Shown here one piece after another: positions 2,100 through 38,690 of a stretch of DNA of 44,385 bases. The DNA lies in sequence record NC_008152.1. One strand, 5' to 3'. The notes under the pieces were generated by a model. It searched no databases. It was not told the DNA's origin and worked only from the letters and a program-made list of their open reading frames with translations. Numbering within the stretch: the first letter of the stretch is position 1; the number at the start of each line of letters is the position of its first letter. The translations under genes and the position numbers were made by a program. The stretch comes from Escherichia phage K1-5.

Positions 2100-2288
2100 A
2101 TGAAAACCTTGATTGGATGCTTCTTGTTGGCTTCTCTTGCTCTGGCATTTACCGCTAAAGCTGGTTATGACGCTTATAAAGTAGAACAAGCCCAGCAAGA
2201 CTGGGCCAAAAAAAAGTTCAACTTGTGCAGCAAGAGCAACACCTACGAGTACTGCAACAAAACACTAAGACACTTATGGAAAGAGTAA
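2100..2288 (+). CDS. Small secreted protein (62 aa) with N-terminal signal peptide
   Basis: AGGAG RBS; MKTLIGCFLLASLALAFTAKA looks like a Sec signal peptide (AKA cleavage site); mature part has 2 Cys. Confidence 0.5.
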   Translation: MKTLIGCFLLASLALAFTAKAGYDAYKVEQAQQDWAKKKFNLCSKSNTYEYCNKTLRHLWKE

Positions 2289-3300: not shown

Positions 3301-5928
3301 ATGCAAGGCCTACACGCTATTCAACTTCAACTTGAAGAAGAAATGTTTAACGGCGGTATCCGTCGCTTTGAAGCGGACCAACAACGCCAGATTGCATCCG
3401 GTAATGAATCAGACACGGCATGGAATCGCCGCTTATTGTCCGAGTTAATCGCGCCAATGGCTGAAGGTATTCAGGCATACAAGGAAGAGTATGAAGGTAA
3501 AAGAGGCCGTGCACCGCGTGCATTAGCTTTCATTAACTGCGTAGAAAACGAAGTGGCAGCATATATCACGATGAAAATCGTTATGGATATGCTGAACACG
3601 GATGTAACCTTGCAGGCTATAGCCATGAATGTAGCTGACCGCATTGAGGACCAAGTACGTTTTAGCAAGCTGGAAGGTCACGCCGCCAAATACTTTGAAA
3701 AAGTTAAGAAGTCACTTAAGGCAAGTAAGACTAAATCATATCGCCATGCGCACAACGTAGCGGTAGTGGCTGAGAAGTCAGTAGCTGACCGTGACGCTGA
3801 TTTCTCCCGCTGGGAGGCATGGCCTAAAGACACCTTGCTGCAAATTGGGATGACCTTGCTTGAAATCTTAGAGAATAGCGTATTCTTCAACGGGCAACCT
3901 GTCTTCCTCCGCACCTTGCGCACTAATGGCGGCAAACATGGTGTTTACTACCTACAGACTAGTGAACACGTAGGTGAGTGGATAACTGCATTCAAAGAGC
4001 ACGTAGCGCAACTGAGTCCTGCCTATGCTCCTTGCGTCATCCCTCCGCGTCCGTGGGTATCACCTTTTAACGGCGGTTTCCACACTGAGAAAGTAGCAAG
4101 CCGTATTCGTCTGGTAAAAGGAAACCGCGAACACGTCCGCAAGCTGACCAAAAAGCAAATGCCAGAGGTTTACAAGGCTGTTAACGCGTTGCAGGCGACT
4201 AAATGGCAGGTTAACAAGGAAGTTTTACAGGTTGTGGAAGACGTCATCCGTCTAGACCTAGGTTATGGTGTACCTTCCTTTAAACCACTCATTGACCGCG
4301 AGAACAAGCCAGCTAATCCAGTGCCGCTAGAATTTCAGCACCTACGGGGCCGTGAACTGAAAGAAATGCTTACGCCGGAACAATGGCAAGCCTTTATCAA
4401 CTGGAAAGGTGAATGTACTAAGCTGTACACCGCTGAAACTAAGCGCGGAAGCAAATCGGCGGCAACCGTTCGCATGGTTGGTCAGGCCCGTAAATATAGC
4501 CAGTTCGACGCAATCTACTTCGTGTATGCACTGGACAGCCGCAGCCGCGTCTACGCGCAATCTAGCACACTCTCACCGCAATCAAATGACTTGGGCAAGG
4601 CCTTGCTCCGTTTTACCGAAGGGCAGCGTCTTGATAGCGCTGAGGCGCTTAAGTGGTTTTTGGTGAACGGGGCTAATAACTGGGGTTGGGATAAGAAAAC
4701 TTTTGACGTGCGCACCGCTAACGTGCTGGATAGTGAATTTCAAGACATGTGCCGCGACATTGCAGCGGATCCGCTGACCTTCACTCAATGGGTAAATGCC
4801 GACTCCCCTTACGGCTTCCTTGCATGGTGCTTTGAATATGCGCGTTATCTGGATGCACTGGATGAAGGCACGCAAGACCAATTCATGACGCACCTCCCAG
4901 TCCATCAAGATGGTAGTTGTTCTGGTATCCAGCACTACAGTGCTATGCTACGCGATGCAGTAGGTGCGAAAGCAGTAAACCTTAAGCCCTCTGACTCTCC
5001 TCAAGATATTTATGGTGCCGTTGCGCAGGTAGTAATTCAGAAGAATTATGCATACATGAATGCAGAGGATGCGGAAACCTTCACTTCTGGCAGCGTGACT
5101 TTAACAGGTGCGGAGCTGCGTAGTATGGCTAGTGCGTGGGATATGATAGGAATCACTCGCGGCCTGACCAAAAAGCCCGTAATGACACTACCTTATGGCA
5201 GCACACGTCTAACCTGCCGTGAGTCAGTGATTGATTATATCGTTGATTTAGAAGAAAAAGAGGCCCAACGGGCTATTGCGGAAGGGCGTACCGCCAATCC
5301 TGTACACCCTTTTGATAATGACCGTAAAGACAGCCTGACACCTAGCGCAGCTTATAACTATATGACAGCTTTAATCTGGCCTTCTATTTCGGAAGTGGTT
5401 AAAGCCCCTATAGTGGCAATGAAAATGATTCGTCAGCTTGCCCGTTTCGCAGCTAAAAGGAATGAAGGCTTAGAGTATACCCTGCCTACTGGCTTCATCT
5501 TGCAACAAAAGATTATGGCTACTGATATGCTCCGCGTATCTACTTGCTTGATGGGAGAAATCAAGATGAGTCTACAGATTGAAACAGACGTAGTGGATGA
5601 AACGGCAATGATGGGCGCTGCTGCTCCTAACTTTGTGCATGGTCATGATGCCAGCCACCTTATCTTAACAGTCTGCGACCTTGTTGATAAAGGGATTACA
5701 TCTATCGCAGTTATTCATGACTCTTTTGGCACTCATGCAGGCCGTACAGCCGACCTTCGTGATAGCTTAAGGGCAGAAATGGTGAAGATGTATCAAGGCC
5801 GTAATGCACTGCAAAGCCTGCTAGATGAGCACGAAGAACGCTGGTTAGTTGATACCGGAATACAAGTACCAGAGCAAGGGGAGTTTGACCTTAACGAAAT
5901 CTTAGTTTCAGACTATTGCTTCGCATAA
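3301..5928 (+). CDS. T7-like single-subunit DNA-directed RNA polymerase
   Basis: 875 aa; [16 protein letters not shown] (motif A), IHDSFGTHA (motif C), C-terminal ...DYCFA; AGGAG RBS. Confidence 0.97.
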
Positions 5929-5936
5929 TATTAATA

Positions 5937-5966
5937 GGCCATTCCTTCGGGAGTGGCCTTTCTTTT
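5937..5966 (+). terminator. Hairpin with UUCG-type loop plus T-run just after the RNAP gene
   Basis: ggccattcc-ttcg-ggagtggcc followed by tttctttt. Confidence 0.55.
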
Positions 5967-27327: not shown

Positions 27328-28049
27328 TGGCTATAGGTTCAGCCGTTATGGCTGGTATGTCTTCTATTGGTAGCATGTTTGCAGGCAGTGGTGCAGCAGC
27401 CGCTGCTGGAGGTGCTGCCGCAGGTGGCGGAGGTTTGCTAGGTTCACTAGGTGGATTCCTAAGTGGCTCTACTGCTGGTTTCTCTAATGCTGGCCTTCTT
27501 GGTGCTGGCCTTCAAGGGTTAGGCTTGATTGGTGATCTATTTGGTGGAAGTGATGAAGCCAAGGCGATGAAGAAAGCACAAGAAGAGCAATGGCGGCAGC
27601 AGCTTATTGCTACACAAGAGGCGTACAAGACAGTGGCAGACGCAGAACGTTCTGCTGCTAAACAATATCATGCAGATGCAATCAGTAATCAGGCTTCACT
27701 GCTACAGCAGCGAGCACAGGTTGCATTACTTGCTGGGGCTACTGGTACTGGTGGTAATTCTGTGTCCTCTATGCTTAATGACTTAGCAGCAGATGGCGGC
27801 AGGAACCAGAGTACTATCATTGATAACTATGAGAATCAGAAGATTAATTTCACCAACCAGCTTAAGTCTATCCAACGTGGTGGTCAGATGCAGATGCGTG
27901 AGTTTAAGAAGCCTTCTGCTATGAATACCTTGGTTAAAGGTATTCCAAGTCTGGCATCTGCCTATGTAACTGGTAGTAAGTCTGGCAAGGCATTGGGTAA
28001 AGCCTTAACTGATTCTCGCACATATTCATCTGGAACAAGAGGTATTTAA
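27327..28049 (+). CDS. Internal virion protein (gp14-like), Gly-rich N-terminus
   Basis: Track ORF 27288; ATG 27327 after AAGGAGGG; synteny. Confidence 0.55.
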   Translation: MAIGSAVMAGMSSIGSMFAGSGAAAAAGGAAAGGGGLLGSLGGFLSGSTAGFSNAGLLGAGLQGLGLIGDLFGGSDEAKAMKKAQEEQWRQQLIATQEAYKTVADAERSAAKQYHADAISNQASLLQQRAQVALLAGATGTGGNSVSSMLNDLAADGGRNQSTIIDNYENQKINFTNQLKSIQRGGQMQMREFKKPSAMNTLVKGIPSLASAYVTGSKSGKALGKALTDSRTYSSGTRGI

Positions 28050-30997
28050 TGGCAATTGAGCGACAAGCAGTACAAGGTCTGCCACAAGTGCAGGCCACTT
28101 CTCCTAATGTCATGACCTTTGCACCTCAACAAGTGGGAGGTGTGGAGGCTGGCGTGGCTTCTACCTCCGGTAGTAGGTTTATCGAAGACCTTATTCGTGC
28201 AGCAAGCAGCGTGGCTGATGTTACCACTGGTATCCTTAATCAGAAGATTGAGGAAGATAAGGTTGTTCAAATGGAACGGGCATATAACGGATTAATGCCT
28301 TCTGAGGATGCAACTCGTGGTGGCGCTCGTGCTAACATGCTTGTCAAAGCTCAACTGCTAGCTAATGATGAAGCAGCACGAATGAAAGACATGGCTACTC
28401 GTTTCCAAGGAACGGATGACGAATGGACACAACTTATGGTTGACTCTCGTAATGAGATGCAGAATAAGCTGTTCCAGCAATACCCTGAGTTGCAAGGTGA
28501 CAAAGATACTATGCGTATGGTCACTAATGTCTTCCAAGAACAGCAGCCTCAGATTTGGGCTACACGAACCCAGCATAAACTTGACCGTGAACAAGCAGAC
28601 CGTGAGGATACCTTTGACGGGCGAGTGGCTTCTACTTGGGATTCTAATATTGACCCTGAAGCCTCTGGCTATGCTTTACAGGAACGAATCCGCGAAGGTC
28701 TTACTCAAGGATTACTACCTGAACAGATGTACAAGAAGTTAGTCCAGCGAGCAATTTCACTTGCACAAGGCGGTGATGTTAGCATGGCTGAAGCCCTGAA
28801 GTATGTGAAGGACGATAAGGGTGTTTCTGTTTATGCTAAGAATCCACAGCTTATCACAGCCATCACTAGTGGTAATGCAGTTTGGGCTAGGAATAATGTA
28901 GCTGATGTAACTCGTATGTCTTTCGAAGTTAAAGAATCCTACCTTGCAGGTGATTTAACTGATGAAGAATTGTTGGAACGAGCACAGCACATTAATAATC
29001 TGACAGGTAACTCTGTCTTCTCTAATCCAGAACTAGAGGCACTGATGCGCCAACGGGCTAAGCAGAATGCAGAGCTAGGTGCAATGCAGGATATGCGACG
29101 TGAGCTTTACTCCGACCGCCTGACTGGCTTCCAAGGTAAGACTGATAAAGAGAAGAAGGCTTACATTGATGTTATCAAACAGGATAGCCAACTTTATGCA
29201 GACCAGCAAATCAAACAACGTGGCTTGGACCCTTACAGTCAAGAGGCTGAAGCTATTCGTGGTGCAGTGGAAGTGCAGCGCCTGCAATTCATGAACTCCA
29301 AAGGCTTAGTGGATGATACCTTTGAGTCTCGTATCAAAGCCATGGAATCTATGCTATCGCCTGAGCACTTTGCCAAGGGCGAACCACAGGAGTTGATGAC
29401 TATTCGCCAGTTGTGGGAACAGTTACCAGAAGAGAGCCGAGGTGTCTTTGGTGACACGGTGAATGGCTACATGGATAACTACAACACTGCACTACAAATG
29501 GGAGAGACACCTTTGCAGGCTGCAAGGTTTGCGCGTAAAGCACAGCAGAAATTCTCTCGTACTGAGAAGGAAACCAAGAAGTTCAACTCAGCTATTGGAG
29601 ATGCACTGGATGAGGTATCTGGTGCTGGCTGGTTTGATGGTAAAACCGAAGTGTCAGACTTAGGTAAAGCTATTGCGGAAGAAGAGTTACGAGCTAAGGC
29701 CAATATGTTGTGGTCTAGTGGTATGCGTAACATGGATTCCATCAAGAAGGCTTTAATTACTTGGGGCAATAAACGCTACACTCAATCAGAGGATGCAAAG
29801 ACTTCCGGTGGCTATTTCATTAAAGGTGATTACACTTCTGCATCTGATATGCTTATGTCAGTTGGGAAAGGCGTAAACCCTACCGATGTACCTCTGGCGC
29901 TTGGTAGGTATGTAGAAACACAGATGCCAGAATTGAAGAAGGAGCTTCAAGAGGGGGAAACTAAAGATGATATATACATTGATTACAATGAACAGAAAGG
30001 TACTTTCGTGATTCGTGCTGGTGCAGCAGGTCGCCCTCTTTCTGGAGTAATCCCTGTAACCTCTTTAGATACCACTTCACTACTAGATTCTGCCTATCAG
30101 AAGAAAGTAGAGGAACGAGATAAAGGCGAGTATGTTCACCCGTATCGTACAGATATTGGTGCACAAGAGCCTATGCCAGCTAAACCAACTGCCAAAGATA
30201 TTGGTAAATTTGGACTAGCTAACTTCCTCATGTCTTCTGCTTTTGCTTCTGGTGAGAATCTGCCTTCTAACTTCGAGATTAACTATCGAGGTAATATGCA
30301 ACAATTCTATGACAAGCTAGCTATGGATGAGAATAAAGATAAAGTTGGCTTTAATAAGGCAACTGGAACCTTTACTCCATATAAAGACGCTCACGGTGAG
30401 TCTATCGGTTACGGTCATTTCTTAACGGAAGAAGAGAAGCGAAACGGGTATATTAAGATTGGCGATGAACTAGTTCCCTATCGAGGGTCTATGTCTCAGC
30501 TTACAGAGAGCAAGGCTCGCGCTCTTATGGAGCAAGATGCTAAGAAGCATGTGCCTCCTACTCGTGACTGGAAGATTCCGTTTGACCAGATGCACCCTGC
30601 ACAGCAACGTGGCTTGATGGATTTAAGCTACAATTTAGGTAAAGGTGGAATCCAGAACTCACCGCGTGCTCTTGCTGCATTCAAAGCTGGTAAGCTTACG
30701 GAGGGCTTTATCGAAATGCTGGGCACTGCATCAAGTGAAGGTAAGCGTATTCCTGGCCTACTGAAGCGACGCGCTGAGGCATACAATATGGCATCTGCTG
30801 GTGGTGTGCCTAAGATTACCGAAGTGGAGACTCGTGAAGATGGCTCCATGTGGGTTAGGTTTGGTGGACCTATGCCAGCAGGTTCTGTCTCGGCATGGAC
30901 TCATAAACGTATTGGCGCGGATGGTTGGTATCAGGTTTATGAGGCTGCACCTACCAAGTTAGCTAAAGATTCTAAGGTAGGTAAAGTTAAGTTGTAG
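28049..30997 (+). CDS. Internal virion (core) protein, gp15-like, with C-terminal T4-lysozyme-like (GH24) domain
   Basis: 982 aa; C-terminal YKDAHGESIGYGH...LMDLSYNLGKGG...LLKRRAEAYNMA parallels T4 lysozyme YKDTEGYYTIGIGH...ALINMVFQMG. Confidence 0.75.
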   Translation: MAIERQAVQGLPQVQATSPNVMTFAPQQVGGVEAGVASTSGSRFIEDLIRAASSVADVTTGILNQKIEEDKVVQMERAYNGLMPSEDATRGGARANMLVKAQLLANDEAARMKDMATRFQGTDDEWTQLMVDSRNEMQNKLFQQYPELQGDKDTMRMVTNVFQEQQPQIWATRTQHKLDREQADREDTFDGRVASTWDSNIDPEASGYALQERIREGLTQGLLPEQMYKKLVQRAISLAQGGDVSMAEALKYVKDDKGVSVYAKNPQLITAITSGNAVWARNNVADVTRMSFEVKESYLAGDLTDEELLERAQHINNLTGNSVFSNPELEALMRQRAKQNAELGAMQDMRRELYSDRLTGFQGKTDKEKKAYIDVIKQDSQLYADQQIKQRGLDPYSQEAEAIRGAVEVQRLQFMNSKGLVDDTFESRIKAMESMLSPEHFAKGEPQELMTIRQLWEQLPEESRGVFGDTVNGYMDNYNTALQMGETPLQAARFARKAQQKFSRTEKETKKFNSAIGDALDEVSGAGWFDGKTEVSDLGKAIAEEELRAKANMLWSSGMRNMDSIKKALITWGNKRYTQSEDAKTSGGYFIKGDYTSASDMLMSVGKGVNPTDVPLALGRYVETQMPELKKELQEGETKDDIYIDYNEQKGTFVIRAGAAGRPLSGVIPVTSLDTTSLLDSAYQKKVEERDKGEYVHPYRTDIGAQEPMPAKPTAKDIGKFGLANFLMSSAFASGENLPSNFEINYRGNMQQFYDKLAMDENKDKVGFNKATGTFTPYKDAHGESIGYGHFLTEEEKRNGYIKIGDELVPYRGSMSQLTESKARALMEQDAKKHVPPTRDWKIPFDQMHPAQQRGLMDLSYNLGKGGIQNSPRALAAFKAGKLTEGFIEMLGTASSEGKRIPGLLKRRAEAYNMASAGGVPKITEVETREDGSMWVRFGGPMPAGSVSAWTHKRIGADGWYQVYEAAPTKLAKDSKVGKVKL

Positions 30998-38052: not shown

Positions 38053-38343
38053 ATGGCTAAATATGGTACTACAGGTTCTGTTACTGGTCAGGCTTTTCGA
38101 GTAAAAGCAGTACAAACTATTGCAACGGCAATCCCGATGCCTGTTGTTAAAGAAGAAGACCTTAAGAGTAAAGACCACCCTATCAACATCAAACATTTAT
38201 CAGGTAAACAGAAAGGTGCAATGGTTGCTCTTGAGAAAGGTGACACAACCTTACATATTGCTGTTGCACGTGGTAGTGAACCCACAGACCCTTGGGATGT
38301 AACTGGTATGGAAAAGGACGCTGTTACTCCAGCAGGGGTATAA
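38053..38343 (+). CDS. Hypothetical protein (96 aa), paralogue B
   Basis: TAAGGAGG RBS; SGKQKGAMVALEKGDTTLHIAVA. Confidence 0.6.
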   Translation: MAKYGTTGSVTGQAFRVKAVQTIATAIPMPVVKEEDLKSKDHPINIKHLSGKQKGAMVALEKGDTTLHIAVARGSEPTDPWDVTGMEKDAVTPAGV

Positions 38344-38345
38344 TA

Positions 38346-38690
38346 ATGCTTAATAAATACTTCAAGCGTAAAGAGTTTGCTTGCCGTTGTGGGTGCGGTA
38401 CATCCACTGTTGATGCTGAATTACTACAGGTAGTCACAGATGTGCGTGAGCACTTTGGTTCTCCTGTAGTTATCACTTCGGGTCATCGCTGTGCTAAGCA
38501 CAATGCCAATGTAGGTGGCGCTAAGAACTCCATGCATCTTACTGGTAAGGCTGCTGACATTAAAGTGTCTGGCATATTACCTTCTGAAGTGCATAAGTAT
38601 CTTACTAGCAAATACCAAGGCAAGTATGGTATAGGTAAGTATAACTCCTTCACTCACATCGATGTACGGGATGGTTGTGCGCGATGGTAA
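38346..38690 (+). CDS. Endolysin, peptidase M15-type zinc peptidase
   Basis: Track ORF 38292; ATG 38346; SGHRCAKHNANVGGAKNSMHLTGKAADI matches the M15 H..D...H zinc-binding signature. Confidence 0.8.
   Translation: MLNKYFKRKEFACRCGCGTSTVDAELLQVVTDVREHFGSPVVITSGHRCAKHNANVGGAKNSMHLTGKAADIKVSGILPSEVHKYLTSKYQGKYGIGKYNSFTHIDVRDGCARW

Follow-up and report, generated by a model that had tools for sequence, protein, structure and literature searches.

Escherichia phage K1-5 is an SP6-like podophage of the genus Vectrevirus, and its genome (44,385 bp; NC_008152.1, analyzed here at full length and called the window) contains a small gene, gene 5, between ocr and the gene for the single-subunit RNA polymerase (RNAP). 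The question raised by this locus is what the 62-residue product of gene 5 does for a virulent phage, and why some relatives carry a different small gene, or none, in its place. The most useful new information on gene 5 is its context: it sits in an exchangeable cassette. The evidence set out below suggests that this cassette encodes an exported peptide and, more tentatively, that the peptide may act in competition between phages at the cell envelope.

Gene 5 is a real gene under selection

A preliminary description, made from the nucleotide sequence, had reported a 62-aa open reading frame (ORF) at positions 2100–2288. These coordinates are exact; a start codon, a stop codon, and a Shine-Dalgarno sequence are all present:

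2100–2288, + strand: gene 5 of K1-5, encoding a 62-aa precursor (ATG start, stop codon included; PHROG 20059)
2087–2091, + strand: Shine-Dalgarno sequence AGGAG, read directly from the sequence, 8 nt 5' of the gene 5 ATG

The product matches the database entry '5 [Escherichia phage K1-5]' residue for residue. Its sole family match is PHROG 20059, a family of unknown function, and this match is full-length (E = 3.1e-46; residues 1–62 against profile positions 1–61 of 61).

Gene 5 is present in 12 GenBank phage records, which fall into two lineages: in ten records the protein is 98% identical to that of K1-5, while ULINTec6 and Mt1B1_P10 carry a 77%-identical allele. The two lineages differ at 25 of 35 synonymous and 15 of 148 non-synonymous sites, giving proportions of differing sites of 0.71 (synonymous, pS) and 0.10 (non-synonymous, pN). 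The resulting pN/pS is ~0.14, or ~0.05 after Jukes–Cantor (JC) correction. Given the difference between pS and pN, the reading frame is under strong purifying selection, and gene 5 is almost certainly a real, selected gene. The 13 amino-acid replacements spare all three cysteines (C7, C43, C52), the AKA↓G junction discussed below, and the C-terminal H-L-W-x-E; the tyrosine and tryptophan residues are unreplaced, and the single phenylalanine of the mature part changes only to tyrosine.

The divergence between the two lineages is concentrated in the gene itself. Nucleotide identity is 78% in the gene 5 body (the most diverged segment of the region), as compared with 96% in the leader and 90–93% in ocr and gene 6. 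Since the gene body is far more diverged than its flanks, the two lineages appear to be old alleles that have recombined into similar backbones.

The gene 5 slot holds several unrelated genes, or none

We defined the slot as the interval between the leader hairpin (see below) and gene 6, and recovered 19 IMG/VR loci through their gene 6 homologue. The alleles found in these loci, and in GenBank, are as follows:

Allele A (gene 5): 61–62 aa; predicted cleaved signal peptide; 2 in IMG/VR, 12 in GenBank
Allele B: 75 aa; predicted N-terminal transmembrane segment followed by a basic stretch, C-terminus probably cytoplasmic; 3 in IMG/VR, 32 in GenBank
Allele C (includes SP6 gp6): 51–63 aa; predicted signal or anchor plus a short tail; 8 in IMG/VR, 13 in GenBank (Klebsiella and Salmonella relatives)
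Allele D: 41 aa; predicted C-terminal transmembrane segment (tail-anchored); 2 in IMG/VR, 14 in GenBank
Allele E: 65 aa; predicted N-terminal transmembrane segment; 1 in IMG/VR
Empty slot: 3 in IMG/VR

In relatives of K1-5, the gene 5 slot is occupied by at least three unrelated small ORFs with predicted membrane targeting, or by nothing. Every occupant has one hydrophobic segment, with uncharged runs of 15–30 residues across the alleles other than A. A comparison of alleles B and E gave E = 0.05. The GC content of gene 5 (0.418) is in line with that of its early-gene neighbours (0.386–0.414).

The occupant most similar to gene 5 is allele C, represented by SP6 gp6 (PHROG 36247; Salmonella and Klebsiella SP6-like phages). 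It lies in the same slot between the same flanks, is of similar size (51–63 aa), and begins with an N-terminal hydrophobic segment; its first 18–21 residues resemble those of gp5 (MKTLI..CFLL; pairwise BLAST E = 6e-5). However, the mature part is unlike that of gp5, and the hydrophobic run is longer (21–30 aa). As to common ancestry of alleles A and C, the pairwise match is suggestive, but hhalign aligns the signal region only, with a probability of 17%, and we treat the mature domains as unrelated.

Alleles have been swapped among nearly identical genomes. Among phages isolated on the host APEC 45, ULINTec6 carries allele A, and ULINTec4 and ULINTec7 carry allele D; likewise, T205P4 carries allele A and T205P5 allele D. 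Even records with the same phage name can differ: of the 'K1E' records, KY435490 carries allele A and AM084415 / NC_007637 carries allele B (75 aa, 'gp5'). These records also differ in length (45,251 bp for AM084415 versus 44,246 bp for KY435490) and, given the differences in length and slot allele, the two are not the same isolate or sequence. A link between allele A and K1-capsule specificity was rejected. Alleles A, B, and D are all found in phages that carry the K1 endosialidase, and the two 'K1E' records differ; the slot allele therefore does not track capsule specificity.

Gene 5 itself also occurs in inactivated form. Two of the five gene 5 protein clusters are null alleles, which was confirmed at the DNA level: (i) a −1 frameshift resulting from A4 instead of A5 in a homopolymer (metagenomic contigs L030 and L031), and (ii) a deletion of 32 nt between two CAGCAAGA repeats (L032 and L033). 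Each null allele was found in two sequencing runs, with the ocr, gene 6, and RNAP context intact. In K1-5, the homopolymer that is shortened in the frameshift allele is longer:

2208–2215, + strand: A8 homopolymer in gene 5, giving one extra, in-frame lysine relative to other intact alleles

The counterpart of this tract in every other intact allele is A5 or a non-homopolymeric equivalent. Taken at sequence level, gene 5 is very probably accessory and exchangeable.

A promoter and two RNA hairpins frame the slot

The region around gene 5 contains two promoter-like sequences and two predicted RNA hairpins:

2014–2034, + strand: phage-RNAP promoter P1, ATTTAGCTGACACTATA followed by AGAG, with +1 at A2031 (A rather than G)
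2046–2067, + strand: inner 9-bp stem of the 5' leader hairpin, with a tetraloop; the outer extension spans 2034–2079 (RNAfold −22.7 kcal/mol, z = −3.95)
2295–2318, + strand: terminator-like 3' hairpin with a 10-bp stem, a 4-nt loop, and a weak T-rich tail (−15.5 kcal/mol, z = −4.0)
2323–2343, + strand: promoter-like P2, ATTTACTTAACACTATA followed by TAAG, overlapping the ribosome-binding region of gene 6

Phage promoter cores (ACACTATA) occur 12 times in the genome, always on the + strand; by chance, 1.7 would be expected. The promoter consensus is ATTTACTGGACACTATAGAAG. P1 is conserved in SP6 and in every other one of the 21 related loci that were compared. The gene 4 stop codon (TGA, 2021–2023) lies inside P1, so that the final codons of this gene also serve as the upstream part (half) of the promoter. 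The preliminary description had gene 5 expressed among the early genes. This holds only in part: gene 5 lies between ocr and the RNAP gene, in the early region and upstream of RNAP, but P1—a promoter of the SP6/K1-5 type—lies directly upstream, and transcription of gene 5 by the phage RNAP is therefore also expected.

The leader hairpin is supported by comparison among relatives. At seven of the nine inner pairs both sides have changed in compensation, and 98% of the cells in the comparison are paired, versus 37–50% in slid registers. Many relatives have UNCG-type tetraloops; the hairpin extends to an irregular helix of ~18 bp, and the flanks TTAAC and GATTAA are invariant. The function of the hairpin could be to stabilise the 5' end or to serve as an RNase III-type site of processing. 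In the 3' hairpin, 99% of cells are paired, and four pairs show compensatory change, all contributed by SP6. A search of positions 1900–2400 against Rfam returned only generic hairpin (miRNA) matches, far below threshold.

The phages with an empty slot reveal which of these elements belong to the cassette: P1 and the leader hairpin are kept, while the ORF, the 3' hairpin (which marks the right end of the cassette), and P2 are gone. P2 has T at +1 and TA in place of GG at −9/−8; in K1-5 its core is intact, but indels or substitutions disrupt it in most relatives, and so P2 is probably weak or vestigial. It has the look of a P1 duplicate in decay, marking the right cassette edge.

The gene 5 product is predicted to be exported

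The preliminary description had assigned the ORF a canonical signal peptide, a prediction that rule-based analysis, conservation, and selection all support:

2100–2162, + strand: predicted Sec signal peptide, residues 1–21, MKTLIGCFLLASLALAFTAKA, with a predicted signal peptidase I (SPase I) site at A21↓G22

The n-region (M1-K2-T3) has a net charge of +1 and no acidic residues. It leads into an h-region with an uncharged run of 17 aa (T3–A19), for which the best 15-residue Kyte-Doolittle mean is 2.34; the hydrophobic moment of the segment is 0.08, as for a uniformly hydrophobic rather than an amphipathic helix. The c-region, A19-K20-A21↓G22, obeys the −3/−1 rule and is conserved in all gene 5 alleles compared. 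The 17-residue core is typical of cleaved signals; those of the other slot alleles have 19–30 residues. In the divergent allele, the substitutions in the signal region (F8L, A11S, A14V, T18A) are all uncharged, and the core stays hydrophobic.

These features were assessed with a crude, hand-made rule set that considers n-region charge, h-region length and hydrophobicity, and the −3/−1 rule. Of the controls, OmpA, PhoA, MalE, Bla, and DsbA pass, while LacZ and Ocr fail. Across the six frames of the window, 253 ORFs reach 40 aa or more; three of them pass, and gene 5 alone conforms to the −3/−1 rule in its strict form. On these features, the gene 5 product is likely to be exported to the periplasm via Sec, and cleavage at A21↓G22 is probable, if less assured than export itself.

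A lipoprotein (SPase II) reading was also considered, on account of LIGC at residues 4–7, the one string in gp5 that resembles a lipobox ([LVI][ASTVI][GAS]C); its cysteine, C7, is kept in every gene 5 allele seen. A lipobox cysteine is usually at position 15 or later. No hydrophobic region precedes the gene 5 motif and, since only MKT stands before it, lipidation is not expected.

The mature peptide is predicted to be a small helical hairpin

Cleavage at the predicted site would release the following peptide:

2163–2285, + strand: predicted mature periplasmic peptide, 41 aa, GYDAYKVEQAQQDWAKKKFNLCSKSNTYEYCNKTLRHLWKE

It is hydrophilic (mean H −0.29), with eight Lys/Arg versus five Asp/Glu (net charge +3) and seven aromatic residues. 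The cysteines that the preliminary description had noticed in the mature part are Cys43 and Cys52. They are spaced CX8C, and both are kept in every allele A sequence compared.

AlphaFold2 models the mature part alone as a helix (residues 25–46, precursor numbering), a short turn, and a second helix (residues 49–61), at a predicted local distance difference test score (pLDDT) of 73. For the full-length precursor it gives one continuous helix through residues 6–45 (pLDDT 62.8). The C-terminal helix has a marked amphipathic character (hydrophobic moment 0.63, at the 99.85th percentile of shuffles). The mature peptide is thus predicted, with modest confidence, to be a helix-turn-helix. Cys43 and Cys52 flank the predicted turn, and the model is therefore compatible with a disulfide; in the oxidising periplasm, a Cys43–Cys52 bond would probably staple the helical hairpin.

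Database and literature searches

All database matches of the gene 5 product are named 'hypothetical protein'. An exhaustive HMMER search of 1.84 billion representatives gave two extra hits, a TPR-repeat protein and a tandem-repeat artefact, both of which were attributed to chance and rejected because their E-values sum many weak repeats. Similarly, a PDB sequence search (phmmer) returned only multi-copy ETV6 fusion constructs, at a chance level of ~5 bits per repeat. A literature search, which did not cover the two original 2004 genome papers, found no discussion of K1-5 gene 5 or SP6 gene 6; work on CSP1 lysis suppression was set aside, as it concerns a different phage.

A possible role in competition between phages at the envelope

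The explanation that we favour, tentatively as a whole, is that gene 5 encodes an exported, cleaved, and disulfide-stapled peptide, supplied from an exchangeable cassette, which acts in phage competition at the envelope. The cassette, consisting of a ribosome-binding site, the ORF, and the 3' hairpin, would sit 3' of the conserved P1 and leader, ahead of gene 6 and the RNAP gene. Judging from its position, host RNAP read-through would already supply the gene 5 product in the first minutes of infection and, judging from P1, the phage RNAP would do so later. The Sec pathway would carry the 62-residue precursor across the inner membrane, where signal peptidase I would cut after Ala21 to leave a basic, aromatic-rich peptide of 41 residues in the periplasm. 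There it would fold as a helix-turn-helix, probably stapled by the Cys43–Cys52 disulfide, and would act at the envelope of the infected cell against other phages, in the manner of superinfection exclusion. In the most concrete version, the peptide would bind a periplasm-exposed part of the ejection machinery of an incoming phage.

The preliminary description had proposed superinfection exclusion or a modification of receptor or envelope, and the data are compatible with such roles. An exclusion-type role is favoured because gene 5 is accessory and hypervariable among phages that share hosts. The other slot occupants are also small proteins with predicted membrane targeting, which is compatible with an exclusion or envelope role and counts in its favour. 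A superinfection-exclusion-type function for gene 5 in particular is possible but rather doubtful.

The closest functional precedent is Spackle (Sp, gp61.3) of phage T4, an early periplasmic superinfection-exclusion protein that inhibits the tail lysozyme of superinfecting phage; it has a signal peptide, is helical, and contains a disulfide (PMC7677548). Gp5 resembles Spackle in that it is a small protein, modelled as all-helical, from the early region of a virulent coliphage, with a predicted cleavable signal peptide and, again as predictions, a periplasmic location and a disulfide. The mature part of both starts with glycine (Gly23 in Spackle, predicted Gly22 in gp5). The two proteins differ in that mature Spackle is a five-helix bundle of 75 residues, whereas mature gp5 would be a helical hairpin of 41 residues.

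The same logic of inhibition could apply to K1-5, which also has a virion-borne lysozyme domain alongside a non-homologous endolysin:

28049–30997: 982-aa internal virion protein with a PF00959 GH24 (T4-lysozyme-type) domain at residues 776–910
38292–38690: K1-5 endolysin, an M15 peptidase (Peptidase_M15_3) unrelated to PF00959

Given these domain assignments, the peptidoglycan hydrolases for entry and exit differ in class. By analogy with Spackle, the virion GH24 domain is a possible candidate target of the gene 5 peptide. The furthest-reaching form of this idea is that the gene 5 slot of SP6-like phages (Molineuxvirinae) is a hot-swappable exclusion locus, in which every allele would supply its own mini-protein and keep the genomes of competing phages from entering, each at another layer of the envelope; gp5 of K1-5 would on this view be a minimal, non-homologous Spackle analogue that inhibits the incoming GH24 domain and spares the phage's own M15 endolysin. 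We regard this extended form as decidedly unlikely.

A number of results weigh against the exclusion reading, or against parts of it. Since null alleles and empty slots exist, phage growth does not depend on gene 5 function. Sequence, profile, and fold searches found no homologue among exclusion proteins. For T4 Spackle in particular, BLASTP gave no alignment at E ≤ 100, and phmmer against the PDB gave no Spackle at E ≤ 10. More generally, Pfam, NCBIfam, and PADLOC contained no significant match to the gene 5 product; a word search of 5.8 billion clustered proteins yielded five clusters only, all from Vectrevirus, and no homologue of known function; and a fold search with the model of the mature peptide found nothing in the PDB, with matches in BFVD only at E > 7. 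That model, like the model of the precursor, is of low-to-moderate confidence and was built with almost no alignment depth. The slot as a whole does not encode one shared periplasmic mechanism, because the allele topologies differ: the C-terminal domain of alleles B and E is predicted to be cytoplasmic, and allele D is predicted to be tail-anchored, so none of these three could work by way of a periplasmic domain. Finally, the GH24 domain is 97.8–100% identical among the 60 best-matching GenBank phage records, all Vectrevirus-like. It is near-identical whatever the slot allele (A, B, or D), so there is no co-variation that would support it as the target.

Other known systems offer partial parallels. 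T5 Llp and the Cor-type proteins are receptor-blocking exclusion lipoproteins. Like gp5, they are small phage-encoded proteins targeted to the envelope; they shield an infected cell against further infection (see PMC9586334). They differ in being SPase II lipoproteins, a modification not expected for gp5. In its arrangement, gene 5 is reminiscent of a phage 'moron', an accessory gene that stands between conserved genes and brings its own promoter and terminator: gene 5 has a promoter on its 5' side and a hairpin on its 3' side, shows presence/absence/replacement polymorphism between near-identical genomes, and is dispensable. However, classical morons are found in temperate phages and expressed from the prophage, whereas K1-5 is virulent. 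Furthermore, P1 and the leader belong to the genes downstream as well and stay in place in empty-slot phages, and the GC content of gene 5 is like that of its neighbours.

Alternative explanations

Two alternatives retain an effect at the envelope but change its target or topology. An exported factor could be directed at the host rather than at other phages, neutralising or re-programming a periplasmic or outer-membrane component such as an abortive-infection or defence sensor, a protease, capsule export, or envelope-stress signalling. Three points speak for such a role: the position of gene 5 next to ocr, whose anti-restriction function is known, in the host-takeover region; its accessory, hypervariable character, typical of counter-defence genes; and its null alleles, which hint at a value that varies with host or condition. 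On the other hand, the product has no similarity to known anti-defence proteins in the PADLOC and Pfam searches, where nothing significant was found, and the slot allele is uncorrelated with K1-capsule specificity; overall, we consider a host-directed role unlikely. The other alternative is that the N-terminal segment stays uncleaved as a signal anchor (N-in, C-out); gp5 would then be a bitopic mini-protein of the inner membrane, with a 41-residue periplasmic tail that modulates an inner-membrane target. Models for such a protein exist: MgrB acts on the host sensor kinase PhoQ, and T4 Imm acts at inner-membrane DNA entry. The membrane-anchored appearance of the other slot occupants, with their uncharged runs of 15–30 residues, fits a signal anchor, as does the continuous AlphaFold helix of the precursor (residues 6–45), and the 17-residue uncharged run of gp5 is only slightly short for a transmembrane helix. 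What makes an anchor unlikely is the textbook AXA site (A19-K20-A21↓G22) after the core, kept in the divergent allele, together with a core that is shorter than in the other alleles; moreover, the lysine at −2 and the small residue at +1 resemble the PhoA signal peptide, one of our controls.

The remaining alternatives concern lysis and the absence of any current function. T4 RI is an early, small, N-terminally targeted periplasmic protein, and gp5 could likewise be a periplasmic antiholin or lysis-inhibition factor that sets the timing of lysis (for a review of lysis inhibition in T-even phages, see PMC6832632). This is very unlikely: gene 5 is far from the lysis genes (endolysin at 38292–38690), its core is rich in Leu/Phe rather than being of the weakly hydrophobic, Gly/Ala/Ser-rich signal-anchor-release (SAR) type, and there is no indication of a holin with a periplasmic domain. 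Lastly, the frameshift and deletion alleles and the empty slots found in nature, and the tiny family confined to Vectrevirus, are what might be seen of a neutral passenger or a decaying gene. Yet comparison of the two intact lineages shows strong purifying selection (pN/pS ~0.14), with replacements that spare the cysteines, AKA↓G, Tyr, and Trp, and a good Shine-Dalgarno sequence is kept; a gene without current function is therefore most improbable.

Neighbouring features

The genes surrounding gene 5 and P1 are as follows:

1575–1907: ocr, encoding the Ocr DNA mimic (PF08684, E = 9.6e-31)
1910–2023: gene 4, 37 aa (PHROG 11746, function unknown), kept from K1-5 to SP6
3' of gene 5: gene 6, 294–297 aa (PHROG 4571, function unknown)
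3301–5928: single-subunit RNA polymerase gene

Two very different ocr alleles exist among close relatives: nucleotide identity between K1-5 and the K1E record KY435490 is 58% in ocr and 92–98% in the genes that flank it. In some GenBank records, the Ocr homologue is labelled 'protein kinase'. Two sigma-70-like promoters, each with 10 of 12 consensus positions, are found at 609–637 and 1193–1221. A strong intrinsic-terminator-like hairpin (5936–5959; 10 bp, of which 6 are GC, then TTCTTTT) lies right after the RNA polymerase gene; it is probably the early terminator for the host RNAP.

Implications for K1-5 and its relatives

Gene 5 is a narrow-range, uncharacterised accessory gene of virulent phages that encodes a small exported or membrane protein, and at present it is one more conserved hypothetical. 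Returning to the reading of gene 5 as part of an exchangeable cassette with a role at the envelope, its interest is in part practical. Both therapy and diagnostics directed at K1-encapsulated E. coli make use of K1-5 and its relatives, and near-identical Vectrevirus isolates are often mixed in one cocktail. If the slot encodes exclusion or envelope functions, the allele carried (A, B, D, or none) would bear on interference within a cocktail as well as between its members and resident phages. As a site for payload genes, the slot would be natural and dispensable, and would come with a promoter, a stabilising leader, and a 3' hairpin in place. Finally, if the 41-residue exported hairpin has a defined target, it would be among the smallest phage effectors that act in the periplasm.

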